Counted from the stretch's first letter, positions 1,880-64,000 are shown. The stretch is 64,000 nucleotides of DNA from a phage (GCA_022143435.1 GCA_022143435.1_3941.1); one strand, 5' to 3'. Notes: generated by a model from the sequence alone, not told the origin. Numbers and translations are program-made.

Positions 1880-2131
1880 GATATTCTCCGATATACTTGA
1901 TATTCAAACACATTTTCTTTCATTATAAACAGCCAACCAATATTATGCTGAGGCAGTGTAATGATGACTGTAATCATACTTTGATGGAACTGTTGTTCTA
2001 TTTCAACTTCTCCATCGCATTTCATGTGGAGCATTCTATAGAACCTATCAATCTTTGTCAAACACTCTTCATGAAATTTATTTAAACTTTTTTCTTCAAA
2101 GAAGGGTGTGAACCCCTCTCTTTTATAGCTA

Positions 2132-4117: not shown

Positions 4118-4310
4118 TAGCACCTCTTCGTTGTAGTTCTGCTTTTAATCCATTTTCAATCTTGTCCAGCTCATGAATTTCATCTGCAATCTCTTTCCTT
4201 CGTGATTCAACTCTCTTAAGACGTTCAATCATTACCTCATTGGAAAGAGATGAGAGTTCCACTAAACGGTGGTCAATAACTTTAAAATTGTCTTTTACTC
4301 TCATCTTCAT
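4110..4310 (-). CDS. hypothetical protein (66 aa)
   Basis: ORF in operon context, charged/coiled-coil-like sequence. Confidence 0.35.
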   Translation of the reverse strand: MKMRVKDNFKVIDHRLVELSSLSNEVMIERLKRVESRRKEIADEIHELDKIENGLKAELQRRGANV

Positions 4311-4318
4311 CCTCTCTT

Positions 4319-5062
4319 TTAAACTTTAATGATGGCTCTTAGCTTGTTCTCAAGGTCTGCAAGAGTACCATTATTATGAATAATGTCACGCTCATATTTT
4401 GTAGAAATGCCATTTTCTGAAACATGTGATGAAACTTTGTCCACATTGTCTCTTTTTACTTCAATAGTTTGGTGTGCAAATCTACTCAGCCATTCAGCTT
4501 CAGAGTCAAATCTTAAATCACTGATTAAGACAAAACCATATTGGTTTCTAAGTGAGCACATTTCATGGAATCTAACCATTCTTTTTTCAAGGTCTTTAGA
4601 CCAGAACTTGTCGCCCATTACTTTACGGACAACTTCAGTACCCCAAACCTGTTGAATTTGTCTTGATGAGAATTTATACTTTTTACTAAACCCCAGACGT
4701 GTCAATAGAGTCGGTTTAGCAACCTTCTTAAGCTCCATGATTAATCGTCCGGTTAACTCTGACATAAGCTTGAAGTCCATATGGTAACGTTCATCTCTGA
4801 AGGTGAACTCCATAGCTTCCGTAACTTTAAACATCAGTTCAGAGTATGATAAGTCAAAAACCTGTGGAGTCTCTTTAGTTTCACCGTACAGGTCATTCCA
4901 AGTCAAGTCAAATATCTTTGATGCAGATAGTTTAAGGTTGTCTGCAAAGGCCATTACAGCAACATTGTAGCCATACTCATCCTCTAAGATGTTCTTCACA
5001 ATAGAACATGAGGTGTCTTTTCCAGAACGTGCCTTTCCAGTAAATGCGATAATATTACTCAT
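4319..5062 (-). CDS. deoxynucleoside monophosphate kinase
   Basis: N-terminal P-loop FTGKARSGKDT resembling T4 gene 1 dNMP kinase (GVKRSGKDT). Confidence 0.7.
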   Translation of the reverse strand: MSNIIAFTGKARSGKDTSCSIVKNILEDEYGYNVAVMAFADNLKLSASKIFDLTWNDLYGETKETPQVFDLSYSELMFKVTEAMEFTFRDERYHMDFKLMSELTGRLIMELKKVAKPTLLTRLGFSKKYKFSSRQIQQVWGTEVVRKVMGDKFWSKDLEKRMVRFHEMCSLRNQYGFVLISDLRFDSEAEWLSRFAHQTIEVKRDNVDKVSSHVSENGISTKYERDIIHNNGTLADLENKLRAIIKV

Positions 5063-5123
5063 TTTATCTCCCTTAATTACTAAAAAGCCCCCAACTAAGG
5101 AGGCTTGTAAGATTTATAAAGAC

Positions 5124-5924
5124 TTAGTGCAGTTGCTCAGCAGACTCTTTTTCAGCCATAGCTGAGATTTGCTTCACAAAATCATCACCGAAGTTAATGC
5201 GTAGTTTCTCTTCAATGATTGAAGCACCAATGTTCACCAAAACATCATTGATTGCTTGCATACTAACGCCACCAGTCATTTCCTCAATGAACTCAATACT
5301 CACACCCATCATCTGTGACAGTTGGATTAGTGCAACGATATTCATCATCGTAGATATAGCTGGAATCATCAGTGCAACTTTCACCTGAAGTGGTTCAATG
5401 TCAGCTACAGAGTCATTTTCAACAGCTTCTTCCAAAGACTCTTTAGTTTGCTGGATAATCTCTTTGATTCGTGGGTTTAATTCTTCTACGCCCCAATCAA
5501 GTTTTTCATATCGTGAAAGTTTCTCTTCCATACGCTTCTCAAGAACAGCCATAACAGCACTCGTTGATGAGATAAGCGTATCAATAATGAAATCAGTGTC
5601 CTTAGTCAGCAACAGTTCCTTATCTTCGTCTGACATCCTGATATAGTCATTCTTTTGCATTTCATAAAAAATGAACTCAGCAAGTGCATCAACACCAACC
5701 GCAATAGATGCCAGAGCAAGTGTAGTGTCTGTCAACATCATATTAACCTGTTCTGCAAAAGCACCGTTATCAGACTTGTCTTCAGGCAAGTTATAGCTTG
5801 CAGGCATAAACTGTTCTGTGTAGTTGTTGCCACGAAGAATCATAGCCATGCTTTCTACGGCATTGATTAAGAATGCTTCATCAACACCTTTCTCTTCAAG
5901 CATCTTTTCTACATCGATATTCAT
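5124..5924 (-). CDS. hypothetical protein
   Basis: 266-aa ORF, no motif recognised. Confidence 0.5.
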   Translation of the reverse strand: MNIDVEKMLEEKGVDEAFLINAVESMAMILRGNNYTEQFMPASYNLPEDKSDNGAFAEQVNMMLTDTTLALASIAVGVDALAEFIFYEMQKNDYIRMSDEDKELLLTKDTDFIIDTLISSTSAVMAVLEKRMEEKLSRYEKLDWGVEELNPRIKEIIQQTKESLEEAVENDSVADIEPLQVKVALMIPAISTMMNIVALIQLSQMMGVSIEFIEEMTGGVSMQAINDVLVNIGASIIEEKLRINFGDDFVKQISAMAEKESAEQLH

Positions 5925-5925
5925 A

Positions 5926-6348
5926 TTATTTCTCTCTCAGTTGGTTAAGTTTCTTTCTAGAACATTTTAAGTTTTCGGATGAAGAAAAGTCAAGTGTCTT
6001 TTCAGAACGTGGATAATAGTTCCTATCCCAAGAAGTTTCAACATCGTTAATCAGTGATGCTAGATTACACAGGTCTGTACCACTTTGCAACCTCTTTTTA
6101 AGAGAATCTAGTAAAGCAACTGTGTCTTTAGCTTTACGTCTCGCTGTAGCAACATCTTTCATATGCTCAAATACAGAGCATTTTAAGTCATCTTCATAGT
6201 CTTCAGACAACTCTATTTCATGTTGTATATCAACCATTCTCCTGTGATGGTGAGCATATTCCCGTTGAGCAGCAATGTCAAGTTCTTCCAACTTCTGCAA
6301 AGCTCTAACAAAGTCAGCTATGTCTGGGTGAACAAACATTTTCTGCAT
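5926..6348 (-). CDS. hypothetical protein
   Basis: 140-aa ORF, no motif recognised. Confidence 0.5.
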   Translation of the reverse strand: MQKMFVHPDIADFVRALQKLEELDIAAQREYAHHHRRMVDIQHEIELSEDYEDDLKCSVFEHMKDVATARRKAKDTVALLDSLKKRLQSGTDLCNLASLINDVETSWDRNYYPRSEKTLDFSSSENLKCSRKKLNQLREK

Positions 6349-6605
6349 GTAAGCCTCTTTTAAGTAGCTATTAAGTTTTAATCTTTTATCTTAACGTATT
6401 CTATACGTTATACTTTAAAGCTTTTTAAAAGCTATTAAATAATCTTTTAAGAGTTTTAAAGTATCTGTATAGTTAAACTGTTAAGTAACCTTTTAAGTAA
6501 AAACCCACTTCGCAAAGATTAACACCTTGTCAAGTGCATTGTCAACTTGCTTTTTATAATTTTTTGCAGTAATGTATGAGGTTAATGATTTTAGAGGGAG
6601 TAAAA

Positions 6606-9305
6606 ATGGAAAACGTAGATTTTAAAAACTTACATTTAGTTGGTGATACAGAAACTGATGGTTTACTCCTTGAGTTCACTAAAGTGCACGTAATGGCTTT
6701 CGCAGACTATAAATCTGACGATGAAGAGCCGCCTGTATGGGTCTTTACAGATGAGCCTATCCTCGGTCACAAGTATACCAAGTATATTAAGGGTGGCTTA
6801 CGTGAAGGTATTGAGTTTGCGTTAAAGGCAAAACGTCTTTGCATCCATAACGGTCTCGGTTATGACTGGTGGGTTTTCAATCACATTGCACCTGATTTAT
6901 GGAACTTTGATAATCCAAAGTGTAAACCGTGGAGTAATTTCTTTCAGGATTCTCTTATCCAGTCTCGTGTTCAGTGGATGGATAGACCAACTCCAAAGGG
7001 TTATAAAGGTGCTCATGGTTTGGCTGCATGGGGTGCTCGCGTTGGTGTTCGTAAGCCAGAGATTGAGCATTGGGGTGTGTGGAATGCAGAAATCTTCACT
7101 CGTGTTGTAGAAGATATCCGTATTAACGCCAAAACTAAACGGGCACTTGATAACGAGTATCTCAAGCTTAAGAAGTGTGGTATAGACACTTATGAGACTT
7201 ACATGCGAGCTAAAGAAACATCTTTCTGGATGAGTCAACAGGCTATTAATGGCTGGAAAGCTGATAAAGAGCTTATGGAGTTCCATGTGAAGGAACTTGA
7301 CAAATTGACTAATGAGCTTGCTTCAGAGGTTGAACCACATCTACCTCCAACTATTAAGACCAAAGGTAAAGTCACTGGAGAAGAGTTTGCAAAAGCTTGG
7401 AATGAGTATGTTGAAGCATTCGGTCATGCAGATGGACTGAAGAGAATTACCAAGTACCCTAAGACAAAGTACCGTCAGCAGGTACGTAACGGTGAGATGC
7501 AGACATACGAAATCAAGCCATTTGGTAAGCCAACTACAAAGATTTTTAACATTGAAAAGAGAAATTGCTATACACCAACCAACTCTGTAACTGGTGAAGA
7601 GTACAAGGAAGGTTTTGTAGCAATGAAGGATGCTCGTGCAATTTGCAATGAGTTGAACGCAAAGATTGGTAAGAAATGCAAAGACTGGAAGCCAGTAAAA
7701 ACAGTCAAAACTGTGAAGTACTATAACAGTCATGTTGTTAACCACTTTGAACTTGAGTCAAGTCGCTACACAGGTTTGATTGATGCACCATATACACCAA
7801 TTGAGTTCGAAGTTTCTCGCATGACTCAGGTAGCAGTTGTTAAAGACTACTTGAAATCAGTTGGTTGGATTCCAGATGACTGGAATTACAAGAAAGACTC
7901 AGATGGTCGCCCTGTCAAAGTTTGTCGTTTCAAAGACAATAAAAAGATGATTACAAAGCATCCTAAGTGGCAGGAAATGGTTGAGCGGTGTGGTTTGAAT
8001 TATGTTGAACATGAAGGTGTACAGTACATCGAGCATAACTGGTCTGTGAAGAAATACACAGATTTGCTTGAGCCTTGCTTAATCCGTACTTCACCAAAAC
8101 TTACTGAATCATCTTATGATACGATTGAAGGTGAGCTTGGACAGAAGATTGCTAAGTACTATACTTTGATGCACAGACGCAGAACTATTGAGAACTCAAA
8201 GGATGATGAAAAAGGTTGGTTGAACCAGATTCGTCCTGATGGTCGCCTTAGTGCTGGCGCAATGGTGTTTGGTACTTCAACTGGACGTATGACACAATAT
8301 GGTATTGTAAACGTACCGTCTGGTGCTGCTGTCTATGGGGAACCAATGAGGGCAGTGTGGATTTGTGAGGAAGGTACTAACGTTGTCTCTGTAGATATGA
8401 ACTCAGCCCAGCTAGTTCTTCTTTGTAACTTTATGGGTGATAAAGAGTTCACCAAAGCGGTAACGCAAGGTAAAGAAGAGATTGAGTTTATTCGTCAAGA
8501 AGATGGACGCTATTACTGCAAACATTTTGATGAGTACCTCAACCCAGAGATTGATAAGTACCTTCGCTATGACTCTGAGAATGACCTGTACGTTGTCTAT
8601 TCAGGGACTGATGCACATACACTGAACAGTATCTACTTTAGCTTGAACGATGAGCAGGACATCTTGACTTGTCGAGCTACTCAGGATGAGAATCTTCTTC
8701 ATGAGATTAGCAAAGGTCGTAAGAAAGCTAAGAATGGTATCTATGCACTACTGTTTGGTGCAGGTGATGAGAAGTTTGCTAAAACTATTAAGGCAGCCAC
8801 TACTCAGGAAGGTGCATTAACTAAACAGACTTACTTTGTGCGTTTGCCAAAGATTAAGAAACTATTAGATAACTTGGAAGCTGACTACAAAGCAACTAAA
8901 AAGGCACTTGAAGAGGTGTTTGGTAAGACCGCTGCAATCTCTAAAGGGGGTTTTGTAAAGGTTGCTGGAGCTTGGTTGTGGTGTAAATCTCCACATAAGT
9001 TGTTGAATTATTTGCTCATGGGTTCGGAAAGTCAGATTCAGAACGAGGCAATTAACCTTGCTTGCCGTCGTATGATTGACGAAGGTTTGATGAAGTTGAA
9101 CGGTCGCAAACCAGCTATAGGTGCTCGTTTATTGTGCTCCTATCACGACGAGACAAGTTGGGAATGTCCAGAAAGTATGACGGCAGAGGTGAAGGCTGTC
9201 ACTGATTGGTATTACGGGCAAGCCTCTAAGAACTTAGGACTAAAGAGTGAAACACTGGTAACTGGTACTGGTAAGGTTGGTAAGTCGTGGTTGGAAGTGC
9301 ATTAA
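6606..9305 (+). CDS. DNA polymerase, family A, with 3'-5' exonuclease domain
   Basis: Exo I motif VGDTETDGL; polymerase motif C YHDETSWECP; start moved to ATG 6606 (AGAGGGA RBS) rather than track start 6576. Confidence 0.9.
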   Translation: MENVDFKNLHLVGDTETDGLLLEFTKVHVMAFADYKSDDEEPPVWVFTDEPILGHKYTKYIKGGLREGIEFALKAKRLCIHNGLGYDWWVFNHIAPDLWNFDNPKCKPWSNFFQDSLIQSRVQWMDRPTPKGYKGAHGLAAWGARVGVRKPEIEHWGVWNAEIFTRVVEDIRINAKTKRALDNEYLKLKKCGIDTYETYMRAKETSFWMSQQAINGWKADKELMEFHVKELDKLTNELASEVEPHLPPTIKTKGKVTGEEFAKAWNEYVEAFGHADGLKRITKYPKTKYRQQVRNGEMQTYEIKPFGKPTTKIFNIEKRNCYTPTNSVTGEEYKEGFVAMKDARAICNELNAKIGKKCKDWKPVKTVKTVKYYNSHVVNHFELESSRYTGLIDAPYTPIEFEVSRMTQVAVVKDYLKSVGWIPDDWNYKKDSDGRPVKVCRFKDNKKMITKHPKWQEMVERCGLNYVEHEGVQYIEHNWSVKKYTDLLEPCLIRTSPKLTESSYDTIEGELGQKIAKYYTLMHRRRTIENSKDDEKGWLNQIRPDGRLSAGAMVFGTSTGRMTQYGIVNVPSGAAVYGEPMRAVWICEEGTNVVSVDMNSAQLVLLCNFMGDKEFTKAVTQGKEEIEFIRQEDGRYYCKHFDEYLNPEIDKYLRYDSENDLYVVYSGTDAHTLNSIYFSLNDEQDILTCRATQDENLLHEISKGRKKAKNGIYALLFGAGDEKFAKTIKAATTQEGALTKQTYFVRLPKIKKLLDNLEADYKATKKALEEVFGKTAAISKGGFVKVAGAWLWCKSPHKLLNYLLMGSESQIQNEAINLACRRMIDEGLMKLNGRKPAIGARLLCSYHDETSWECPESMTAEVKAVTDWYYGQASKNLGLKSETLVTGTGKVGKSWLEVH

Positions 9306-12250: not shown

Positions 12251-12856
<606 letters not shown>

Positions 12857-12858
12857 TT

Positions 12859-13299
12859 ATGAATACAAAAGCATTAGCAGCAAAGTTTAGTTACGGTGAC
12901 ACTGTATCACATTCTGAGATGGACACCTTCTTAGGTATTGTGAAGCCAACTTATCAAGGTGACATTGTTAAGTACGAAGATGAAATGAAGGCTTATGCAC
13001 TTACACGTCTAAACCGACTTGAGAAGTTTATTGAAAAGCTTCTTAAAGAAGAGAAGATTTATCTGGTTGCTTCAATGGGTGTTGGTTATCGTGTGGTTGA
13101 ACCTAAGCATCAAGCAACTATTGCAAAACGTAAAATGTCTGGTAAGATTGGTCGTGCTTTAAAGCAAGCCACTCAAGCGATTGAGAATGTGAATACTATG
13201 GCACTTAGTCATCAAGAACGTTCACGACTGATTGAACAGCAAAACCATTTAGCTGCTATGAAAGCTAACATTAACAAGCAACGTAGAAAACCTTTCTAA
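12859..13299 (+). CDS. hypothetical protein
   Basis: 146-aa ORF adjacent to previous gene. Confidence 0.5.
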   Translation: MNTKALAAKFSYGDTVSHSEMDTFLGIVKPTYQGDIVKYEDEMKAYALTRLNRLEKFIEKLLKEEKIYLVASMGVGYRVVEPKHQATIAKRKMSGKIGRALKQATQAIENVNTMALSHQERSRLIEQQNHLAAMKANINKQRRKPF

Positions 13300-13309
13300 G
13301 TTGACTAGG

Positions 13310-13333
13310 AAGCCTCTTCGGAGGCTCCTTTTT
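13310..13333 (+). terminator. rho-independent terminator
   Basis: GAAGCCTC-TTCG-GAGGCTCC hairpin followed by TTTTT. Confidence 0.7.
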
Positions 13334-13690
13334 AAAAGGTCTTTTAAGAAGGTCTTTTAATGAGGTAAGGTGCGGTCTGGTAAGGCATGGTATGGTTGGG
13401 TGAGGTGAGGTATGGGTAGTTAATCGGAGCTACATTAAAATTCGATTACATCACTTAAAAGTCTTCTAAGAGGATTTTTAAGTGATGTTCGGTAGGGTCT
13501 GGTAGGGTGAGGTATGGGTAGTTAGTCTCAGCTACATTAAAATGAGACTTACCTTTTTAAAATGTCTTTAAAAGGGTCTTTTAACAAGGTATTGTATGGT
13601 GTAGTTTGGTTAGGTATGGTTAGGTGTGGTAAGGTAGGGTATGGAAGGATGGCAGTAGCCTTATAAAAAATCTGCCAAATAAGCTATAAA
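13330..13690. repeat. G-rich repeat/hairpin block 2
   Basis: Second copy of the modules in block 1, with compensatory base changes in hairpin stems. Confidence 0.8.
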
Positions 13691-13768
13691 ATCTGTTGAC
13701 AAGTCAGGTGTTATAGCTTATTTTTATACTCAATGTAATACAAAATTTAATATAACTTTGAGGTCATT

Positions 13769-14152
13769 ATGAAAAAGATTTTATTAGCTGCTGCAATGGT
13801 TATGGCAATGAATTTACCAGTCAATGCAACAGAACTTCCAAATGTGGACTTATCAGGTGTTCCAGAAGACACTTGCCAGATTGTAAAAGGTGTTGCTCTA
13901 GCTAATGGTGAGCTACTTAAACCAATCTCTGAAGAGTCTTTGACAGAGATGACTGATAAAGTAACTGACTATCAGTATCGTGTTCTTGCAGAGTATTTCC
14001 TGCAATCTGCAAACATTAAAGAGAAGCACCATGAAGATATTGATGTACAGGCTATGCTAAATCATCGTATCCAGTTTAAAGAAGATTTGATGCAAAAAGC
14101 TATGTATGGTGTTGAGTATTTCTTAGAAAACAGAAGCTGCACAGGTATTTGA
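13769..14152 (+). CDS. secreted/periplasmic protein, hypothetical
   Basis: Signal peptide MKKILLAAAMVMAMNLPVNA with AxA-like cleavage site. Confidence 0.55.
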   Translation: MKKILLAAAMVMAMNLPVNATELPNVDLSGVPEDTCQIVKGVALANGELLKPISEESLTEMTDKVTDYQYRVLAEYFLQSANIKEKHHEDIDVQAMLNHRIQFKEDLMQKAMYGVEYFLENRSCTGI

Positions 14153-55772: not shown

Positions 55773-55783
55773 AATATCTTAAG

Positions 55784-55808
55784 AGCCTCCTTAATTGGGG
55801 GCTTTTTA
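55784..55808 (+). terminator. rho-independent terminator
   Basis: AGCCTCC-TTAATT-GGGGGCT followed by TTTTT. Confidence 0.7.
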
Positions 55809-55969
55809 CTTTTATAAAATTTTATCGGTTGTCCCAACCTCTGGGTCACCATTATGTGTGAACAAAATATCTACCCTTCTTAACAACCTTCTTAATCTTA
55901 CTCTCTATATATAGTTATATAGTACTATATAGTATCTTAGTATCTATCTAGTGGTCTTAATAGCCCCTC

Positions 55970-57420
55970 TGTATAAGCCTTCTAACAAGCCCTCTAACAA
56001 GCCTTCTAAACAACCTATACAAGCACCTTAACCACCTCTCTATACCCTCTTAGAAGCTCCTATACACCTCTTAATCTCTAGGTTATCTGTGTTACTTAAC
56101 AGTAACCCATTATGTTAGCTATGACACTCTCTATAGGTGTTCACTAGGTATTACTAAGCCTCTATATAGACTGTTTTAACAAGCTTAACAGGAATATCTT
56201 CACAGACCTTATCTCACAAGGTCTAACACGGTACTAACAAGGTATCTTATAAGCCTGTTATTGCCTGTATTTTTAAAAGGCTGTATAGGTAATTATTCAG
56301 AATCTTAAAATTTTTATAAAATAGGACTATCAAGTCCTTTTTTTAGGGTCTTTGAAGGAACTGAAAAATATCTGTAGAAGATGTATATCTGCTTGGTAGC
56401 CCTTAACAGCTCCCTTACAAGTACTTTGCAAAATTTTAAAATATCCTTAACAATCTCTTAACAGCTCTCACATCTTCTTAACAACTCTTCAAAGGTCTTA
56501 ACAGATTCTTAACAGAACTAACAAGGCTGTAACAGTTTTCTAGGGATTGGTAACAATACCAATTAACAAGTGCTGAATAGTCTTTACAGAATCTTAACAG
56601 ATGACTAACAAGAGCTAAGTAGTTAAATGTTAAGAGTTATTTTGTTAAGATAATTAACAAGTCTCTAACAAGTGTTTAATCTTTTTAACAAGCTATTAAC
56701 ATGGTCACTACTCTTTTCTTATCGTTCCCTTTGCTTCTTAGTGATTCTCTAAACATACCTCTTAAAAGCTCTCTATAGCTCCTTGTAAGCCCTTTTAAGC
56801 CTCTTCCTAGTATTTACCCCCCAACTGTACAGATAGCTCTTTATAGGGCTTTACAGGAGCTTTTAAGGCTATGTCAAAGACTCTTACAAGGCTTTTACGT
56901 GGTCTTAACAGAGATTTAACAAGGGGCTAACAAATCTCTAACAAGCATAACTATGTAGGGATTGTTAAGAAATTGTTAAGAAAATGTTAAGGGGGCTAGC
57001 ATTTACGTAACTTTATAGCCTCTTTTACGTAACTTTGAAGTAACTTTATAGCCCCTATAACATACTTTTAAGACACTACCAATAGGATTCGATAGATTCC
57101 TATCTCATAGCCCTTTTTAATAGTTCACAAGAATACTAACGAGATGATAAAGCTTACACCCTTATAAGATTCTTTTAAGTCTCTGAGAAGCTTTATAAAG
57201 GGCTTTTTAGGGTGAGTTAATGCAATCCCTTAAGTTAGGTTGATAAGGCTGTTATAGAGCTTTATAGAGCGTTTAAACGGTTGCCCTTCCCTTTCGGGTT
57301 ATGGGCTTATATTTAAGTTGATTTGATAAGAGGTTATAGCGTAGACTATAGAGTTATTGCTTTTAAGGTCTAGTAAGATTCTGGAAAGGTGATGGAAAGA
57401 GATTGTATAAGGATTCGATA
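55970..57420. repeat. ORF-free repeat-dense region with YTAACAR heptamer array and other short direct repeats
   Basis: At least 25 copies of (T/C)TAACA(A/G) between about 55975 and 56960, three inverted copies TGTTAAG at 56963-56995; no ORF of 60 aa or more in any frame. Confidence 0.8.
56323..56345 (+). terminator. terminator-like hairpin within the noncoding region
   Basis: GGACT-ATCA-AGTCC followed by T8. Confidence 0.55.
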
Positions 57421-57425
57421 GACGT

Positions 57426-57450
57426 AAAAAAAGCCCCTTTAAATAGGGGC
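57426..57450 (-). terminator. rho-independent terminator ending the early minus-strand gene array
   Basis: GCCCCT-loop-AGGGGC followed by T7 on the minus strand. Confidence 0.7.
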
Positions 57451-57489
57451 TGTTCAGGTATCTGGGGCTATTTAGCCCCGCTGCGTCGA

Positions 57490-57738
57490 TTAGTTGTAAC
57501 CTTGTTTATTGTAGTACAGGGAAACAATCAAGTCACCCCAGTAATGATAGTGATGCTCGTCGTTTAATGCCTCTTTTACAGCGTCTTTCCAGAAGTCATC
57601 AGTAGGGTTATAATCTGGGATAACTTGCTTGATAACTGTCTTCACTAATGAAAAACACTCATCAGTTCCACCAATATCAAATTTAACGTCCAGAGTATAA
57701 CAGCCATAAGCATTGACAGTTGCGCGGATAGTTGCCAT
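57490..57738 (-). CDS. small early protein, hypothetical (type A cassette upstream)
   Basis: ORF with conserved GGAG-N8-ATG. Confidence 0.5.
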   Translation of the reverse strand: MATIRATVNAYGCYTLDVKFDIGGTDECFSLVKTVIKQVIPDYNPTDDFWKDAVKEALNDEHHYHYWGDLIVSLYYNKQGYN

Positions 57739-57800
57739 TTTAGAATCTCCAGTTTAGGACTTTATTTAGTGGGGAGGTTATTCCCTCCCCGTTGATGAGT

Positions 57801-57829
57801 AATTTACTGCATGTTGGCGTATGTTGCAA
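57801..57829 (-). promoter_or_regulatory. sigma70-like promoter of type A cassette (TTGCAA-N17-TAAATT)
   Basis: Read on minus strand just upstream of conserved hairpin 57771-57790. Confidence 0.5.
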
Positions 57830-58067
57830 GTCTTTTTTCGTTGTATTTTGTCAGAATCTCACAAGATAAAACATCATATTTTGTAACCGCTTTGCCTTTG
57901 TCGAGGTCAAAAAAGCCAAATGCTTTACCATCTTTGAATCCGACAACTTCATAAGATTCTTTGATGATTTCACCATTGAATAAATCGCTTTCGATACGGT
58001 GAAACAGTGCTACATCTTCTTTGTCAGTTGCAATTTGTAAAAGTGTGGTTAATTCTACGTTTTCCAT
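57804..58067 (-). CDS. small early protein, hypothetical (type A cassette upstream)
   Basis: ATG with GGAG RBS. Confidence 0.5.
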   Translation of the reverse strand: MENVELTTLLQIATDKEDVALFHRIESDLFNGEIIKESYEVVGFKDGKAFGFFDLDKGKAVTKYDVLSCEILTKYNEKRLATYANMQ

Positions 58068-58099
58068 CTTGATAACTCCAGTTTAGGACTTTATTTAGT

Positions 58100-58120
58100 G
58101 GGGAAGGTCATTCCCTCCCC
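58100..58120 (-). repeat. type A cassette hairpin core GGGGAAGGTCATTCCCTCCCC (one of 7 copies)
   Basis: Copies at about 57771, 58100, 58697, 59259, 60817, 61682, 63827; each about 25 nt upstream of a GGAG-N8-ATG. Confidence 0.85.
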
Positions 58121-58133
58121 GTTGATTGACAAT

Positions 58134-58664
58134 TTACAGACTTTTGATTATCTCGTCAATATCTTTTTCAATGTCTTTTAAAGTTTTTTCTAAGTTCTTG
58201 ATATTAAATGATAAACCTTCACCAAGAGTCTTAGAGTAACCACTAGGACGTAGATTATACAGTTTAATTTCTTCCACTTTAAAGAGACTAACTAACTCAC
58301 CGTTTACATCATAAGCCATTGAAACAGTATTTGCAGGTGCATTGTAAAACTTGTTTAGTGACTTGATAGAGCGTTCATAAGCCATTTTATAACCGTTTAA
58401 AAGGTTTTTAACGTGGTTGTGAACGTTTTTACACTCATCTAGATAAATCTCTAAGAATAACGGTAATAATTCCGCTACAGCTTGCATAAAGTGAGAGACT
58501 ACAACGGTTGAGACATTACGACGATGAACGTAATAAGCCCCGTTTTCTGATTTGGTGATTGTTGCGAAATGTACCCCATTACAACGGAATTCGTATGTAT
58601 CTTTTACAGGCTTAGACATTACAGCATTTGAACGAATGAAGTTGATAGCTTGAAATTTGTTCAT
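58134..58664 (-). CDS. early protein, hypothetical (type A cassette upstream)
   Basis: 176-aa ORF. Confidence 0.5.
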   Translation of the reverse strand: MNKFQAINFIRSNAVMSKPVKDTYEFRCNGVHFATITKSENGAYYVHRRNVSTVVVSHFMQAVAELLPLFLEIYLDECKNVHNHVKNLLNGYKMAYERSIKSLNKFYNAPANTVSMAYDVNGELVSLFKVEEIKLYNLRPSGYSKTLGEGLSFNIKNLEKTLKDIEKDIDEIIKSL

Positions 58665-58883
58665 TTTAGAATCTCCAGTTTAGGACTTTATTTAGTGGGG
58701 AGGTTATTGCCTTCCCGTTGATTAGTAATTTACTTGTTTTGATAGTTGATTGCAAGTAATTTTTTGAGCTTATCTATAAAGAATCTTTTAAGTGAATCCC
58801 TTTTAGATAACCCCCTCGAACAAAGTTACCAATGTCAATGGGTATTGTCAACACTTTTTTAAAAGTTTTTTGTAAGTTATTGA

Positions 58884-59225
58884 TTAACTGATGAATATTT
58901 TTTCAGGTTTTACATAGCTGATACGCTGACTTTTTAGCAGGTCATCCCAGATTAGCGCGGCGATATGGGAGTAACCGGATTCACGTAAAAGCTTCATTGT
59001 TTTACTTCTCGTTTCAAAACGGCTTGCGTAGTACTCACTATTTAAAACCGTTTTATTCCCTTCGTTATCTACATGGATAATCTGCATCACTTGAAAGGGG
59101 CTTGTGTCCTCGCCTTTGTTCCACTGTTCAAAGTATTTTAGGCACTGCATAGGTGACATCTTATCACTTACTTGAGTTGACCAAGATGAATTTTCTTTAT
59201 CGGTAATTACGGTTACATAAGCCAT
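58884..59225 (-). CDS. small early protein, hypothetical (type A cassette upstream)
   Basis: 113-aa ORF. Confidence 0.5.
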   Translation of the reverse strand: MAYVTVITDKENSSWSTQVSDKMSPMQCLKYFEQWNKGEDTSPFQVMQIIHVDNEGNKTVLNSEYYASRFETRSKTMKLLRESGYSHIAALIWDDLLKSQRISYVKPEKIFIS

Positions 59226-59316
59226 TTTTGAATCTCCTAGTTTAAGGATTTTACTTAGTGGGGAAGGTCATTCCCTCCCCGTTGATTGACAATTTACAGA
59301 TTTTTATCAGGCTTGT

Positions 59317-59550
59317 CTAGTCTTTTTCAATGATAATTTCATACTGACCATCTACGCTGTCAAAATAGATACCGTCTTCATCTTCTGTCTTAAAGTAACA
59401 TTGTATATCATCACTAGCGGGATAGTCTTGTCTTGCTATCTGGCAAACTTGAATAGCATTTTCTTTACTTCCTGTAAACTCTTCAAGCCCTTTAAAATCA
59501 CATGAATGACCATTACAGATGGAAAGGATGAGGTAAATGGTTGTAAGCAT
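59317..59550 (-). CDS. small early protein with hydrophobic N-terminus
   Basis: N-terminus MLTTIYLILSICNGHSC. Confidence 0.45.
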   Translation of the reverse strand: MLTTIYLILSICNGHSCDFKGLEEFTGSKENAIQVCQIARQDYPASDDIQCYFKTEDEDGIYFDSVDGQYEIIIEKD

Positions 59551-59564
59551 GATTTAAGCCCTCT

Positions 59565-59583
59565 AAAAGCCCCTACAAGGGGC
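59565..59583 (-). terminator. terminator-like hairpin
   Basis: GCCCCT-TGTA-GGGGC followed by TTTT on the minus strand. Confidence 0.5.
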
Positions 59584-59616
59584 TGATTAGTGTTTATAAG
59601 GTGATTGCATAGGTTT

Positions 59617-60159
59617 TTAGAAAAAGCTCTTTAAATCCTCTTCTGCAATGTTTCCTGTCAGTGTATCCATGATGTCACAAAAAACCTGAATACTGTCCGA
59701 CTGTTGAACACTTTTAGCAAGAAGCTCCAGAGACTCATCAAGATAGTTTAAATTTGGGTTATCCAATGAAGGAAGACAAAAAGGTGAATACATAGCGTTA
59801 AACTCTGTTGTATAGACCTTTTTAATCCAATTTACATCAAAGTACTCTGTAAAACTTGCTACACTCGACATATTATCACAAGAATAATCATCATTTAGCT
59901 CATCCTCTGGAATATCGAGTTCTAAGATAACAATATTTTGAGTCTTCATCTGAAAAGCTGCGGTGATAGTGGCATTGCCTAAAGCTTGCTGGATACCTTC
60001 AGAGATTATTTCTTCCTCATCGTCGCCATAGATTTTATTTTCTGGATACACGTAAAAATTGCCGTCCATATCCGAACAATTCCATGCGCCTGATGGTTTA
60101 TCACCGTTATTAATCAGGTTGAGGAAATTTTCTTGAGTAGTTCCGTGATAGCATTTCAT
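59617..60159 (-). CDS. acidic early protein, hypothetical (type B cassette upstream)
   Basis: 180-aa ORF. Confidence 0.5.
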   Translation of the reverse strand: MKCYHGTTQENFLNLINNGDKPSGAWNCSDMDGNFYVYPENKIYGDDEEEIISEGIQQALGNATITAAFQMKTQNIVILELDIPEDELNDDYSCDNMSSVASFTEYFDVNWIKKVYTTEFNAMYSPFCLPSLDNPNLNYLDESLELLAKSVQQSDSIQVFCDIMDTLTGNIAEEDLKSFF

Positions 60160-60246
60160 TTTTGAATCTCCTAGTTTAAGGATTTAGTGGTAAAGCTCTT
60201 TATCTGGGGCTTACTTTATCGAACTATAAGCCCCTTGTAAAGTACT

Positions 60247-60495
60247 TTATTTAACTTTCTTTGAGAAAATTAGTTTAACTGCAACCGTAGGAACCTCGTC
60301 AGCGATTGTAACCAGCATCACTTTTTGAGTGACCAACTTATAACCGTTCTTTGCAGCGTATGCGGTAAAACGGTTGACATTGTAACTATAAGTTTTTGGT
60401 GTGTTATCTGGCATGTGGTAAATGAAAGGTTTACCCAAATTTTCTTCTTGTGTCAATAATCTACAGGTATCGGGAATGTTAAAGTAGTTCATCAT
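60247..60495 (-). CDS. small early protein, hypothetical (type B cassette upstream)
   Basis: 82-aa ORF. Confidence 0.5.
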   Translation of the reverse strand: MMNYFNIPDTCRLLTQEENLGKPFIYHMPDNTPKTYSYNVNRFTAYAAKNGYKLVTQKVMLVTIADEVPTVAVKLIFSKKVK

Positions 60496-60553
60496 TTTTA
60501 GAATCTCCAGTTTAGGATTTAGTGGTAAAGCTCTTTATCTGAGGCTTAAGTTA

Positions 60554-60784
60554 TCAACTTTTAAGCCCCTTGTAAAGTACTTTATTTGTTATTTTGACAA
60601 CTTTTAAAACTGCAAGATAGCCTAAGCAATAAGAATCACCGAAGAGAGTCCTACCCATGAAAGAATCCTCTTTGATATCCTTTGCAGTGACAGTTTTTTC
60701 TACGCCGTGGGAAAGGACTATATCACCAACTTTGATATCTTTGATGTGTGTAGTTTCAATGGTTAAACCATTAATAATAGCCAT
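60554..60784 (-). CDS. small early protein, hypothetical (type A cassette upstream)
   Basis: 76-aa ORF. Confidence 0.5.
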   Translation of the reverse strand: MAIINGLTIETTHIKDIKVGDIVLSHGVEKTVTAKDIKEDSFMGRTLFGDSYCLGYLAVLKVVKITNKVLYKGLKS

Positions 60785-60847
60785 TTTAGAATCTCCAGTT
60801 TAGGACTTTATTTAGTGGGGAAGGTCATTCCCTCCCCGTTGATGTGT

Positions 60848-60876
60848 AATTTAATCTATCTAAAAACCAGTGTCAA
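60848..60876 (-). promoter_or_regulatory. sigma70-like promoter of type A cassette (TTGACA-N17-TAAATT)
   Basis: Consensus -35 with AT-rich upstream tract; hairpin 60817-60837 lies in the 5' leader. Confidence 0.55.
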
Positions 60877-60885
60877 CAAAATTTT

Positions 60886-61290
60886 TTAGAGTTCTGCATA
60901 AATTGCATCACAGATATTACGGAAGTCATGATTAGTCAAATTACGCTGCAACCAAGTGGCGAAAAAGTCAGCGATTGCAAAGTTAGCATCATACTCGACA
61001 GATAGCCACACTTTAACAGCAAATCGGAACATTTTCAAATCTAACTCTTTATTCATTACCTTAGATTTGCCTAACATGTCGGACATTTCATATTGCGCAC
61101 CGTCTAGCGTGATACCTGCTGCAACGTCAGCCAATGAATTTTTTACGTTTTCAACGTCTAAAATAACGCTTTGAATCTTTCCGATAATGTTGTGCAATGT
61201 CTCATCAGGCGCTGATGATGTCATAATGTTGATTCGATTAACGGTCAAACGTGCTTTTAAGGTTGATAATTCACGGTTATTAATAGCCAT
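60886..61290 (-). CDS. early protein, hypothetical (type B cassette upstream)
   Basis: ATG 61290 (track start is TTG); first codons MAI are part of the conserved cassette. Confidence 0.5.
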   Translation of the reverse strand: MAINNRELSTLKARLTVNRINIMTSSAPDETLHNIIGKIQSVILDVENVKNSLADVAAGITLDGAQYEMSDMLGKSKVMNKELDLKMFRFAVKVWLSVEYDANFAIADFFATWLQRNLTNHDFRNICDAIYAEL

Positions 61291-61335
61291 TTTTAAGTTC
61301 TCCAATTTAGGATTGAGTGGTAAAGCTCTTTATCT

Positions 61336-61364
61336 GGGGCTTAAGATATCAACTTCCAAGCCCC
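61336..61364 (-). repeat. type B cassette hairpin core GGGGCTTAA...TTAAGCCCC (one of 6 copies)
   Basis: Copies at about 60206, 60540, 61336, 62409 (variant), 63011, 63357; followed by palindrome TGTAAAGTACTTTA. Confidence 0.85.
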
Positions 61365-61376
61365 ATGTAAAGTACT

Positions 61377-61649
61377 TTACATTAAATGCAGTTTTTTGCC
61401 TTTTACTATAATGTAACTCGATGCGCTATTGCTTTGCACATCCTGATAAATTCTGCGCAAACGTCCTTCGTAGTGTACTTTCCAACTGGTTGGAATCTTT
61501 TTACCGTATCCCGTAGCAGTTTTTTGGAGTCCTGCTACTTGCCAATCTAAGATATGAGTTTCAGCCTGTAAATCCTCAAAGTGCATGACACCATCTACAT
61601 AGTGACGTAGTGTGACATTTAAAGTACGACCGTTGTTAGTAGTATACAT
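61377..61649 (-). CDS. small early protein, hypothetical (type A cassette upstream)
   Basis: 90-aa ORF. Confidence 0.5.
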   Translation of the reverse strand: MYTTNNGRTLNVTLRHYVDGVMHFEDLQAETHILDWQVAGLQKTATGYGKKIPTSWKVHYEGRLRRIYQDVQSNSASSYIIVKGKKLHLM

Positions 61650-61712
61650 TTTGGAATCTCCAGTTTAGGACTTTATTTAGTGGGGAAGGTCATTCCCTCC
61701 CCGTTGATGTGT

Positions 61713-61741
61713 AATTTAATCTATCTAAAAACCAGTATCAA
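61713..61741 (-). promoter_or_regulatory. sigma70-like promoter of type A cassette (TTGATA-N17-TAAATT)
   Basis: Near-identical to the promoter at 60848-60876. Confidence 0.5.
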
Positions 61742-62070
61742 CAGTTTTGTTTTCGTTTGCTCAATTCTTGAACAATTACAGCGTAGTAGTCTTTTAAGTC
61801 ACTGACATTTAAAGCATTTATCAGAGAATTATAATCATCAACTAACTGAAAATTATCTTTGAAGATGTCACTTATCTGATAGGTTTTCGCTTTATATCTG
61901 AAGCTCATCTCTAGCCGCTTTATTTGCTCATCACTGAGGCGCCCTAGAAAGCTTTCTACAAGGCTATTACTAACCTGCTGTGTGATTGCCTTATTTGCTA
62001 GATTATAGGCTTTATATGCCTTATATAGCGCGAAAATGGCAATGATTGCAGTGATACCAGTCATTAACAT
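61738..62070 (-). CDS. small membrane protein, hypothetical
   Basis: N-terminal TM segment ITAIIAIFALY. Confidence 0.45.
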   Translation of the reverse strand: MLMTGITAIIAIFALYKAYKAYNLANKAITQQVSNSLVESFLGRLSDEQIKRLEMSFRYKAKTYQISDIFKDNFQLVDDYNSLINALNVSDLKDYYAVIVQELSKRKQNC

Positions 62071-62360
62071 GGTGTTTCCTCTTTACGTGATACTTTGCCA
62101 TTTACAGTTATCTCATAGGATTCTAATAAATCGCTTTTAGACTTTACAGGACTTTTAAAAGTATCATCATAGATATTAACTTGCAATACAGGTTTTTTAT
62201 ACTCCCTGCAACTGTTCCATAAGCAAATCACTACACGACGGCCTTTTATTTTGCCGTGTAACCATTCCATAACATCATGATTATTCCTTGATGTTTCAAT
62301 GAAATCAATTTTGTTGAGTAATTTGCTTAGATTTTCACGCACTTGATTTGATAATTTCAT
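62064..62360 (-). CDS. small early protein, hypothetical (variant type B cassette upstream)
   Basis: 98-aa ORF. Confidence 0.5.
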   Translation of the reverse strand: MKLSNQVRENLSKLLNKIDFIETSRNNHDVMEWLHGKIKGRRVVICLWNSCREYKKPVLQVNIYDDTFKSPVKSKSDLLESYEITVNGKVSRKEETPC

Positions 62361-62452
62361 TTTAGAATCTCCTAGTTTAAGGGCTTTATTTGATAAATCT
62401 CTTTATCTGGGGCTATCCTACCAGCTTGATAACCCCGTGTAAAGAAATCTAT

Positions 62453-62965
62453 TTAGTTCTTAAAGATATTCATCACTGAATCTTTTAGTGATTCCAAACG
62501 TTCTAATACTTCAGATTCTGCGTCTGAATTGTTCACCTCTTCTTTTAGTCTATCCTCTAAATCATCGCCGTCACTATAGCACCAATCAAAAGCGTAGCCA
62601 ATATAAAAACTGTCTAAAATTGTTTGACCATTTGCATCGACAACTTTCGCGGCAAGGTTGTATTCTGAAGCCTCTAAATCTCTTTCTAATTCTTTCTGTA
62701 AGCTTGTGTAAGCCTCTTTTGATGGATTTTCCCGGCCTTGTTTTGCATAGTCACTTGAAAGCTGTTTAAGGCTGTAATGCAAAGGGGTTGCATATTTAAA
62801 ATCATTACGCTGACAGTTGGGGTTTTTAATAGTCACGCCGCCCTGATGGGTGTCTGTAAACTCCCAATTATCAAGATTATGGCTTGCTTCAAAGCAATTG
62901 ACAGCTTCATAAATAATAGTGAATTTTTCTTTTACAACTTCAAAGGTAGCGTCTACAGTTTTCAT
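62453..62965 (-). CDS. early protein, hypothetical (type B cassette upstream)
   Basis: 170-aa ORF. Confidence 0.5.
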   Translation of the reverse strand: MKTVDATFEVVKEKFTIIYEAVNCFEASHNLDNWEFTDTHQGGVTIKNPNCQRNDFKYATPLHYSLKQLSSDYAKQGRENPSKEAYTSLQKELERDLEASEYNLAAKVVDANGQTILDSFYIGYAFDWCYSDGDDLEDRLKEEVNNSDAESEVLERLESLKDSVMNIFKN

Positions 62966-63053
62966 TTTTGAATCTCCAGTTTAGGACTTAGTAGTAAAGC
63001 TCTTTATCTGGGGCTTAAGATATCAACTTTTAAGCCCCTTGTAAAGTACTTTA

Positions 63054-63311
63054 TCAGATTAAATTGCCAGTTAATGATAAGTGCATTTTGTAACCTTGTT
63101 TAGTGAAAACATTCACTTTACCGAGTGTTTTTACACCTTTAAAAAGGTTATTTGAACTGCGTTTTAGGTTTAACTGTTTATCAACCTTCACGCCCCACCT
63201 TACAGCAGATTGTTTTCCGTTGTCAACCACTTTCCCGCATAACTTTTTAGCCATGATACGAGCGTCATCACGAGTCTTTGCGGTAATTACAACGTTTTTG
63301 ATAATAGCCAT
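63054..63311 (-). CDS. small basic early protein, hypothetical (type B cassette upstream)
   Basis: ATG 63311; shares first codons MAI with 60886-61290. Confidence 0.5.
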   Translation of the reverse strand: MAIIKNVVITAKTRDDARIMAKKLCGKVVDNGKQSAVRWGVKVDKQLNLKRSSNNLFKGVKTLGKVNVFTKQGYKMHLSLTGNLI

Positions 63312-63399
63312 TTTTAAGTTCTCCAATTTAGGATTTAGTGGTAAAGCTCTTTATCTGGGGCTTACTTTATCGAACTATAAGCCCCTTGTAAAGTACTTT

Positions 63400-63621
63400 T
63401 TATTTATCGTAGTAGTAAATTGCTGTCTGTCTCGTAAATTTTTTAGTATTTCTTGTAAGGTAGCAATTAGAGTTTATAGCTGTTTCTACATAGTTGCAAT
63501 AGTCAGCTTCTGATATTCTGGACCATACGCCACAGATTTGCATGTAAAAACGTTTTGCCTTTGTGTTAACGTTAGTTGTAACCATCAATTCGCGACTGTA
63601 AAGCATTATTTCGCGCTCCAT
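63400..63621 (-). CDS. small early protein, hypothetical
   Basis: 73-aa ORF. Confidence 0.45.
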   Translation of the reverse strand: MEREIMLYSRELMVTTNVNTKAKRFYMQICGVWSRISEADYCNYVETAINSNCYLTRNTKKFTRQTAIYYYDK

Positions 63622-63794
63622 TTCTCAAAGAGTTCAGCAGGGAAACGTTCGCTATACCCTTTTAAGGAAAAAGTATTATCTTTGTGGATAGCTTCCACCT
63701 GATAAACCTTATAAGAGCGTATAGTTAGCATTTTGTAAGAGTATTCGTGCTTAATGTTAACCTCATCGCCAACTTTAATTTTTCTTGATGCCAT
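63606..63794 (-). CDS. small early protein, hypothetical (type A cassette upstream)
   Basis: 62-aa ORF. Confidence 0.45.
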   Translation of the reverse strand: MASRKIKVGDEVNIKHEYSYKMLTIRSYKVYQVEAIHKDNTFSLKGYSERFPAELFEKWSAK

Positions 63795-64000
63795 TTTTGA
63801 ATCTCCAGTTTAGGATTTTATTTAGTGGGGAAGGTCATTCCCTCCCCGTTGATGTAAATATTAGATAACCACGTTCAAAGAGTCAATAAAAATTTTAAAA
63901 ATATTTTTGGCAAAACTGTAATGAAACGGGTGCGCACGACTACCACAAAACAGAACGCAAATCAAGAATTATTTTTCAATCCGCTACAAATTTTTCTCTT

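Follow-up and report, generated by a model that had tools for sequence, protein, structure and literature searches.

What kind of element can stand nearly unchanged in front of one small gene after another, when the genes themselves are unrelated? The question is raised by a phage sequence of 64,000 nucleotides (nt), GCA_022143435.1_3941.1, hereafter called the window, in which a first reading made from the sequence alone (the sequence-only reading) had counted thirteen copies of two conserved units composed of promoter, hairpin and Shine-Dalgarno (SD) sequence, each preceding a small early gene. A repeat finder and motif searches agree with this count, giving seven units of type A and six of type B, which span 57,738-63,886 on the minus strand. 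Our analysis suggests that the thirteen elements are probably two families of mobile expression cassettes, similar to promoter-early stem-loops (PeSLs), in an array of early genes carried by a Felix O1-like phage. From its cassette, the downstream open reading frame (ORF) or ORF pair would obtain a promoter of the host sigma70 type, a leader with RNA structure and a ribosome-binding site (RBS) common to both families.

The region of 6.6 kb has matches in 255 phage records, essentially all of them Felix O1-like (Ounavirinae), the closest being XTG1 and ASO1A with 94-96% identity; the window comes from a Felixounavirus in the subfamily Ounavirinae, i.e. from outside the T4-like group. The array consists of 16 small ORFs of 62-180 amino acids (aa), all on the minus strand, and a cassette is found in front of 13 of them. 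Beyond 57.7-63.9 kb, motif searches gave no core motif in window positions 1-57,000, and none in Felix O1 at 1-8,300 and 68,000-86,155. In Felix O1 the equivalent array comprises ORF15-23, lies downstream of rIIA/rIIB and of the phosphatase ORF13, and is bounded by the terminators t13 and t23 (PMC3185647); lying between two terminators, the array therefore requires promoters of its own. In the window it is closed by a canonical intrinsic terminator at 57432-57451 (minus strand; AGCCCCTATTTAAAGGGGCT followed by TTTTTTT), the counterpart of Felix O1 t23 (PMC3185647, Table 2).

Type A units, named here by their start codons (63794, 61649, 60784, 59225, 58664, 58067 and 57738), have on the coding strand a fixed order of -35 hexamer, 17-nt spacer, -10 hexamer, 10 nt ending in ATCAAC, hairpin and ACUAAAUAAAGUCCUAAACUGGAGAUUCUAAAAUG. 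The -35 hexamers in the window are TTGACA, TTGACT, TTGATA, TTGACG, TTGCAA and TAGACA, and the -10 is TAAATT except in one unit with TAATAT. The sequence-only reading had described the hexamers and their spacing correctly but had confined them to places where intergenic space allows, and in this point it was mistaken: the signature is present in all seven units, and in four of them the stop codon of the upstream gene lies inside a promoter hexamer (TAA in TAAATT at 58136 and 57806, TAG in TAGACA at 59319, TGA in TTGATA at 61740). Where genes are tightly packed, the promoter sits within the preceding coding sequence (CDS). The -35 hexamers embedded in this way (TTGACG, TTGCAA, TAGACA, TTGATA) differ among copies and lie in unrelated genes, and therefore the promoter signal is maintained independently of repeat homology. 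A survey of 135 distinct type A units from many genomes gives the same picture, with a TAnnnT -10 in all 135, a spacer of 17 nt in 132, a -35 matching the consensus at four or more of six positions in 131, and a distance of 10 nt between the -10 and the hairpin again in 131.

The type A hairpin is GC-rich and has 7-8 base pairs (bp); its sequence is exactly GGGGAGGGAATGACCTTCCCC in five of the seven units, with the variants GGGAAGGCAATAACCTCCCC and GGGGAGGGAATAACCTCCCC in the other two. Folding gives the form GGGGAGGG-AAUGA-CCUUCCCC, of 8 bp including one G.U pair, with a free energy of about -18 kcal/mol for the whole unit. All 48 distinct variants of the hairpin fold with at least 5 bp, the median free energy being -11.9 kcal/mol against -3.1 for shuffled sequences, and at the type A position of Bas63 additional variants are seen (GGGC...GCCC, GGGGG...CCCCC and GUGAGG...CCUCAC). 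Transcription is predicted to start 7-8 nt past the -10 (for example at the A at 60840; further predicted starts lie at about 61705, 59283 and 58123), leaving 2-4 unpaired nt ahead of the stem. Base pairing at the 5' end is known to block RppH and RNase E (PMC3997798), and because the fixed position beside the predicted 5' end fits this effect, the hairpin may guard the messenger RNA (mRNA) against 5'-end-dependent decay. With such a start, type A would resemble the 5' stabilising stem-loops of the ompA, papA and T7 gene 10 leaders, which hinder the same enzymes (PMC3997798), with the differences that the type A start site is a predicted one and that an identical hairpin ahead of many genes is unusual. 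A leader peptide was also considered for type A, as the AUG in the loop opens an ORF of six codons (MTFPTK) ending at the TAA of ACTAAATAA; it was rejected, since this AUG is missing in many variants (GATAA and CAATAA loops) and the SD-like GGAGG lies just 2 nt upstream of it, inside the stem.

At their 3' ends the two families converge on one RBS module. GGAG-N8/9-ATG is present in all thirteen cassettes, A and B alike, where the sequence-only reading had given GGAG-N8-ATG. The common 3' module is CACUAAAU..CCUAAACUGGAGAUUCUAAAAUG, the likeness sometimes reaching the first codons (MAI...), and the shared ribosome-binding module, CTAAACTGGAGATTCTAAAATG, is near-consensus.

Type B units (start codons 63311, 62965, 62360, 61290, 60495 and 60159) are built around a different hairpin. 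Five of the six are close copies; the sixth, at 62360, has diverged from them (GGGGTTATC...GATAGCCCC) and is still homologous. The sequence-only reading had pointed to a palindrome of 14-16 bp in these units; the sequence, AAAGTACTTTA (AAAGUA.CUUUA), does exist, but it is not a stand-alone palindrome. In folding it pairs with a downstream box, TAAAGAGCTTT (UAAAG.AGCUUU), and thus forms the 5' arm of a lower stem, the same arm also holding the -35. The whole is a two-tier hairpin of about 60 nt, with a lower stem of 11 bp and one mismatch, a symmetric 3x3 internal loop (CAA/AGA), a GC-clamped upper stem of 9 bp (GGGGCUUAA/UUAAGCCCC) and an apical loop of 10-13 nt. It begins 0-3 nt past the upstream stop codon or overlaps it. 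As a side observation, the 76-aa ORF at 60,554-60,784 (minus strand), which has 65-68 aa in relatives, has lost its stop here; it extends about nine codons into the type B cassette that follows, and its new C-terminus (...NKVLYKGLKS*) is encoded up to the loop of the hairpin, at 60554.

Pairing in the type B stems is conserved far beyond the window. In an alignment of 135 distinct cores, 99.3% of the stem cells are paired, against 34-71% when the partners are slid by 1-3 columns as a control. Double compensatory changes are present, for instance G-C to U-A in 16 sequences, and the divergent copy at 62,450-62,394 retains both stems by such changes. Moreover, at least eight covarying arm pairs occur in the upper stem (CTTAA/TTAAG, CTTAT/GTAAG, TTATC/GATAG, TTTAT/ATAAG, TTTATA/TATAAG, CTA/TAG, TTATA/TATAG and CTTGG/TTAAG); the arms were parsed directly, as MAFFT with RNAalifold lost part of the upper stem through loop-length gaps. 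In these stems G.U cells number 239 and A.C cells 10, and therefore the pairing is under selection in a sense-strand-specific manner. A known RNA family was also sought for the cassettes and can be set aside: the Rfam covariance models gave no match at E<=1 in 57,300-64,000 on either strand.

The sequence-only reading had taken the type B stems as conserved and the loops as variable, and both are confirmed, except that the loops are not free throughout: in spite of their variability they keep an invariant TA...T, which fits a -10 hexamer. Among 170 distinct type B units the hexamer TTTACA is invariant, its first letters closing the 5' arm of the lower stem and its CA lying unpaired in the internal loop, and in 162 of them a TAnnnT follows 17 nt downstream; the remaining eight, judged by eye from their shifted hexamers, look consistent with an 18-nt spacer. 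The -10 hexamers are of more than ten kinds (TAAAGT, TATCTT, TAAGAT, TAGTAT, TATGAT, TACCTT, TAGGAT, TAACTT, TACAGT and others), and a TG at -15/-14 accompanies them in 81 of the 170 units. In the alignment, entropy is zero at T-12, A-11 and T-7, and the three positions between are among the most variable columns. At the level of sequence this is the classic -10 signature, written into an otherwise free loop. Type B itself would thus be a promoter (TTTACA, 17 nt, TAnnnT) embedded in a two-tier hairpin with the -10 in the loop, a feature that goes beyond the earlier account and is the most distinctive one of the cassettes. The predicted start is the A of AGAUAAAG, directly 3' of the upper stem (e.g. 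63009); in the window these starts, each the A of AGATAAAG, are 63356, 63009, 62408, 61335, 60540 and 60205. Given a start at this place, only read-through transcripts coming from upstream would contain the hairpin in full.

The same design is met in a second genus. In the Erwinia phage Roscha1 (genus Kolesnikvirus) the B hairpin and its promoter signature persist with the clamp changed to GGUG...CACC: TTTACA and, 17 nt further, TAGTAT or TAATCT lie within GGUGUUUAUAC/GUAUAAGCACC, and the lower stem is unchanged. In units of the TTGACA type in Roscha1, a TAAAAT likewise falls in the loop of a hairpin. In both genera that were examined, Felixounavirus and Kolesnikvirus, compensatory changes have preserved the design, and a promoter inside a hairpin would be an unusual overlap of a DNA-level with an RNA-level code. 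The Kolesnikvirus phages have a cassette repertoire of their own (Roscha1, 1,800-6,700), which besides B-type units includes further classes, one with TTGCAA...GGGGUUA-loop-UAACCCC and one with TTGACA-18-TAAAAT whose -10 lies in the loop of a GAGGGG/CCCCUC hairpin; all use one common RBS module, CCCTTAYAAAGGAATCAAA, unlike that of the window.

One may ask whether type B is a promoter at all. Possibly only type A units initiate transcription, the B units being purely intercistronic elements for RNA processing or stability in A-driven operons and TTTACA...TAnnnT a by-product of the hairpin. The hexamers are in fact partly paired, since CTTTA belongs to the lower stem and T-7 to the 3' arm of the upper one; the -10 elements match the consensus weakly and have a GC-rich discriminator behind them, and in the array a B unit is always downstream of an A unit. 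However, a by-product would hardly leave the unpaired CA of TTTACA and the TA in the loop invariant beside highly variable loop positions, nor keep the 17-nt spacing constant although loop lengths differ; the signature also survives in Kolesnikvirus with different stems, and the TG at -15/-14 recurs in nearly half of the units. Furthermore in Felix O1 and ESCO45 the array opens with B-driven genes ahead of which our scan classifies no A unit, although an unrecognised promoter may lie there, as at the head of the Bas63 array. Taken together these points make the restriction of promoters to type A unlikely in our opinion, and the type B unit is better read as a predicted promoter of its own.

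A different doubt concerns the level at which the inverted repeats act. They might work in DNA, as operators through which a dimeric regulator of phage or host turns early promoters off, or as cruciforms or non-template hairpins that a recombinase or RNA polymerase reads. On either side of the promoter core stands a near-palindrome (AAAGTACTTT and AAAGAGCTTT), a role of GGGG...CCCC as protein target was a speculation of the PeSL authors (PMC2839356), and in two genera several cassette classes have their -10 in the loop of a hairpin. Nevertheless self-palindromy is lost in the divergent copy at 62450 and in many variants, which keep the complementarity of the arms, G.U pairs included; the excess of G.U over A.C is unexpected for a protein site in duplex DNA or a symmetric cruciform; and the half-sites, by hand count 47 bp apart from centre to centre, fall on opposite faces of the helix. 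DNA-level roles are accordingly disfavoured by these sequence comparisons, and we regard them as quite improbable. In a radical variant of the promoter-in-hairpin idea, a hairpin of the sense strand may form on the non-template DNA and offer the -10 to sigma70 as single-stranded DNA.

If type B units are promoters wrapped in a hairpin, the complete hairpin in read-through RNA may serve as an intercistronic processing or 3'-end-protecting element, in a manner like the RNase III signals of T7, or possibly as an attenuator. RNase III substrates have about two helical turns; where they contain an internal loop just one strand is cleaved, and a protective hairpin stays at the 3' end of the product (PMC1540722). 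The early RNase III signals of T7 (e.g. R1.1) are likewise intercistronic two-tier hairpins of about two helical turns among small early genes, interleaved with and flanked by promoters, and R1.1 gives comparable tiers on folding; in both cases, if the internal loop were cut once, in its 3' strand, the upstream mRNA would end in a protective hairpin. The likeness is one of geometry, with no sequence similarity: the apical loop of type B is larger (10-13 nt), its internal loop is a symmetric 3x3 one, and its hairpin also encodes a promoter whose predicted start falls at the 3' side of that loop. By analogy one may conjecture, at rather long odds, that type B units and the Kolesnikvirus units with the -10 in the loop are dual-coded, serving as sigma70 promoters in DNA and as RNase III-type processing hairpins in read-through RNA, with the cut 3' of the internal loop coinciding with the transcription start. 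Were it true, each gene would receive the same leader whether locally initiated or cut from a polycistron, and cassette-plus-ORF units would be fully context-independent and freely exchangeable.

The cassette hairpins have also been taken for terminators, and if they were terminators or attenuators insulating each gene, the cassettes would be terminator/promoter composites. In the ASO1A and XTG1 records the type A hairpins are labelled rho-independent terminators (a WebGeSTer prediction), PeSL stem-loops, also of the GGGG...CCCC kind, terminated transcription in reporter assays (PMC2839356), and overlapping terminators and promoters were reported to be common in bacteria (bioRxiv 10.64898/2026.08.19.745784). 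Against these stands the sequence following the hairpins, which has no U-tract and is A-rich (ACUAAAUAAAG after type A, AGAUAAAGAG after type B), and an intrinsic-terminator role is unlikely for such hairpins. A consensus terminator scan picks none of the 13 cassettes, finding just t23 (57451-57432) and two unrelated sites, and the TransTerm table of Felix O1 gives only t13 and t23 around the array (PMC3185647). Moreover the type A hairpin, being downstream of its own promoter, would stop the transcripts of that very promoter, and some of the XTG1 terminators sit on the non-coding strand. Nor does the geometry agree with promoter-coupled terminators (Fletcher et al. 2026 preprint): these share with the cassettes that one DNA stretch provides a stem-loop of the upstream RNA and a promoter of the downstream gene, but there the hairpin DNA serves as -35 and the T-tract as spacer, with the -10 after the T-tract, whereas type B has its -35 ahead of the upper stem and its -10 within the loop, and contains no T-tract. 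Termination as the function of the hairpins seems therefore doubtful to us, and the labels in ASO1A and XTG1 are probably mis-annotations, which the reading as expression cassettes corrects.

How do genes come and go around the cassettes? The sequence-only reading had linked these units, by their likeness to the T4-type cassettes, with modular gene shuffling and named a comparison of related genomes as a check; such a comparison supports the link. Ten genomes were compared (the window, ASO1A, Felix O1, XTG1, SWJM-02, Seyj1-1, ESCO45, SflM_004, LF82P5 and VpaE1_ev78), in which the array holds from 9 to 17 genes; gene order is conserved and cassette-flanked units come and go. Collinear BLAST chains between the window and its nine relatives gave 26 junctions with 52 endpoints, and 45 of these fall inside a cassette or no more than 6 nt away from its ATG, the cassettes covering about 20% of the array. 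In a genome lacking a segment, the flanking alignments overlap by 61-97 nt, i.e. by one cassette length. For example, a deletion of 3,055 bp in LF82P5 lies between the B units at 63311 and 60159 with an overlap of 96 nt, and a difference of 1,492 bp in Felix O1 between the A units at 60784 and 59225; single genes differ between the A units at 58067 and 57738, the B units at 60495 and 60159, and the A units at 58664 and 58067, and relatives carry insertions at B 63311, A 61649 and A 59225. At least ten independent cassette-to-cassette events were counted. In addition, hairpin variants are reassorted with respect to the downstream genes, the MKCFH gene standing behind nine variants and one variant ahead of nine genes, and types A and B are swapped ahead of the same gene between genomes (f30 in VpaE1_ev78, and MAYVT). 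Only 12 of the 255 related records cover 80% or more of the region, the matched parts being about 90% identical.

Since the cassettes are near-identical direct repeats of 60-100 nt, homologous recombination between them may insert, delete and exchange cassette-plus-ORF units and in this way give rise to the hypervariability of the array among relatives. It is conceivable on the other side that the cassettes are passive, being similar through duplication of genes together with their regulatory regions or through strong purifying selection, with the indels at their boundaries reflecting selection for intact genes. Viable indels do have to spare the neighbouring genes, and five of about 15 events are not cassette-to-cassette. 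A passive origin, however, agrees poorly with downstream ORFs that are unrelated and fall in 16 different PHROGs, with junction overlaps of full cassette length, and with the reassortment of hairpin variants and the A/B exchanges at the shared RBS module, and so we see little prospect for it; recombination among mobile cassettes accounts better for the pattern. A paralogy of two ORFs, grouped as f6 by single-linkage clustering, was dropped and the grouping not used, as by eye the two look unrelated.

Several points weigh against the expression-cassette reading and should be stated together. The type A hairpin is conserved mostly at the level of sequence, with few compensatory changes in its 48 variants, and a sequence-specific role, e.g. 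protein binding, is possible. The type B -10 hexamers match the consensus at 3-5 of six positions and are followed by the GC-rich discriminator, and these promoters could be weak. A G.T pair is tolerated in a hairpin of non-template-strand DNA as well, so that sense-strand pairing is no strict proof of RNA. Besides the events outside cassettes, several of the junctions are shared by descent, and surviving indels must respect gene boundaries, from which part of the junction enrichment is expected even without cassette-driven recombination. As regards timing, reverse-transcription PCR (RT-PCR) in Felix O1 found ORFs 16, 20, 21 and 22 maximal 5 min after infection, in favour of early expression, but end-point RT-PCR has ORFs 17, 19 and 23 of the array maximal at 25 min (PMC3185647). 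Finally, transcript 5'- or 3'-end data for Felix O1-like phages, from start-site mapping or RNA sequencing, were not found in the literature searched, and promoter activity and start sites are therefore predictions; the hairpin roles and the mechanism of recombination are likewise what we infer. What the sequences do establish is the two repeat families, their promoter signatures, a conserved pairing specific to the sense strand, and indels bounded by cassettes.

The PeSL of T4-like phages, to which the sequence-only reading had likened the units, combines a sigma70 promoter, a stem-loop and an SD sequence, the stem-loop lying just upstream of the promoter and terminating transcription in reporters, and when PeSLs recombine with one another, indels and mini-circles arise (PMC2839356, PMC4122927). 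In both systems units of about 70-100 nt carry a sigma70-like early promoter, a GGGG...CCCC stem-loop, an SD sequence and the start codon (Arbiol 2010, PMC2839356; Comeau 2014, PMC4122927), are repeated between small ORFans of a hyperplastic region, and bound the indels and replacements among close relatives; even the type B -35 of the window, TTTACA, fits the T4/PST PeSL consensus TTTACW. The comparison stands for the parts, the small early ORFs and the shuffling, and not for the order of the parts. The stem-loop is upstream of the -35 in PeSL, but here downstream of the -10 (type A) or enclosing spacer, -10 and discriminator (type B); the window cassettes have no U-tract, type B adds a lower stem and an internal loop, and two families share one RBS module. 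Moreover, the lineage is Ounavirinae here and Tevenvirinae for PeSL. Thus the analogy appears to hold for function and evolution, not for architecture or lineage.

The repeats themselves have been recorded before. Two direct repeats of Felix O1 are the same sequences as the cassettes, the 57-bp one being the core of type B and the 39-bp one the promoter of type A, and the authors, who described promoters and temporal control as unknown, gave the repeats no function, structure or evolutionary role (PMC3185647). DR_1 to DR_9 in the GenBank record of wV8 are again the same sequences, recorded as repeats only, and the wV8 paper does not mention them. The ASO1A and XTG1 records contain piecemeal promoter and terminator features in the array, predicted by program. 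No interpretation linking Felixounavirus with PeSLs, regulatory cassettes or early-gene promoters was found in the literature searched.

The genes behind the cassettes were called unannotatable in the sequence-only reading, and so they are: the 16 array ORFs gave no Pfam hit, and their PHROGs are all of unknown function. The 180-aa ORF at 59617-60159 (minus strand, MKCYHGT...) is 96% identical to bas63_0107 (gp107) of Bas63. In the PhageMaP knockout screen, g107 of Bas63 was more essential on E. coli S17-1, and a slight structural similarity to the NAD-binding domain of RNA 2'-phosphotransferase was reported for it (PMC11482910); a PDB sequence search with the 180-aa protein gave nothing significant. 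By this homology it is the only hint at a role in host takeover or anti-defence among the array ORFs.

Felix O1-type phages are widely used in typing and biocontrol of Salmonella and E. coli. With the cassettes, these phages would gain a first explicit model of early promoters with predicted start sites. The PeSL idea of standard regulatory linkers, by which small accessory genes are plugged in and out, would extend beyond T4-like phages, and a different and apparently independent design hints that phages in general may solve in this way the problem of expressing a hypervariable toolbox of early genes. The cassettes also flag sites of accessory genes, some with host-conditional fitness effects (e.g. 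the Bas63 gp107 homologue), and would be natural landing pads for phage engineering.

The individual units, all on the minus strand, are as follows. The first promoter of the array belongs to A 63794 (63792-63886), with -35 TTGACT at 63886-63881, -10 TAATAT at 63863-63858, hairpin at 63847-63827 and GGAG at 63806-63803 before an ORF of 62 aa. A 61649 (61647-61741) has TTGATA at 61741-61736, holding the upstream TGA stop, TAAATT at 61718-61713 and the hairpin at 61702-61682 (90 aa), and A 60784 (60782-60876), with the consensus -35 TTGACA at 60876-60871, has TAAATT at 60853-60848, the predicted start at about 60840 and the hairpin at 60837-60817 (76 aa). In A 59225 (59223-59319) TAGACA at 59319-59314 holds the upstream TAG stop, TAAATT is at 59296-59291 and the hairpin at 59280-59260 (113 aa); A 58664 (58662-58755), with TTGCAA at 58755-58750 and TAAATT at 58732-58727, has the weakened hairpin GGGAAGGCAATAACCTCCCC at 58716-58697 (176 aa). 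The promoters of the last two lie within the upstream CDS and the TAA of their -10 is its stop: A 58067 (58065-58159) has TTGACG at 58159-58154, TAAATT at 58136-58131 and the hairpin at 58120-58100 (87 aa), and A 57738 (57736-57829) has TTGCAA at 57829-57824, TAAATT at 57806-57801 and the hairpin at 57790-57771 (82 aa).

Of type B, unit 63311 (63309-63399) shows the lower-stem 5' arm together with the -35, AAAGTACTTTACA, at 63399-63387, TAAAGT at 63369-63364, the end of the upper stem at 63357, the 3' box AGATAAAGAGCTTTA at 63356-63342 and GGAG at 63324-63321 (85 aa). Unit 62965 (62963-63052) has the -35 at 63045-63040, TATCTT at 63022-63017 and the predicted start at about 63009 (170 aa). The divergent unit 62360 (62358-62450) has AGATTTCTTTACA at 62450-62438, TAGGAT at 62420-62415 and the upper stem GGGGUUAUC/GAUAGCCCC, its ORF of 98 aa overlapping the next one of 110 aa. 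Unit 61290 (61288-61378) has the -35 at 61371-61366, TATCTT at 61348-61343 and the upper stem GGGGCUUGG/UUAAGCCCC with two G.U pairs (134 aa); unit 60495 (60493-60583) the -35 at 60576-60571 and TAACTT at 60553-60548 (82 aa); and unit 60159 (60157-60248), ahead of the Bas63 gp107 homologue of 180 aa, the -35 at 60241-60236 and TAAAGT at 60218-60213.

Three further places deserve mention. A short GC hairpin at 59568-59584 (minus strand; AGCCCCUUGUAGGGGCU followed by UUUAGAGG), in the gap between the 180-aa and a 77-aa ORF, is the sole cassette-free intergenic hairpin of the array, and at the equivalent site the wV8 record has a rho-independent terminator. The intergenic gap of 219 nt at 58,665-58,883 (minus strand), upstream of the A cassette that begins at 58,755, is unusually long; it contains an additional TTGACA-17-TAACTT match (about 58,826-58,860) and a GAGGGGG stretch, is annotated with a promoter and a terminator in ASO1A, has an insertion of 139 bp in SflM_004, and may be the remnant of a lost cassette or gene. 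Directly downstream of the array terminator, window positions 55,773-57,430 form a stretch of about 1.7 kb without ORFs and dense in short direct repeats, where 27 of the 97 YTAACAR matches in the window lie within 55,880-56,979, nearly all on the plus strand and often 10-11 nt apart, and repeats of the CTTTATAG type lie at 56,757-57,273; its Felix O1 counterpart, 12,368-13,928, is without annotation. By its sequence this stretch looks iteron-like, and it could serve in replication as an origin, in packaging, or as the place where a regulator lands.

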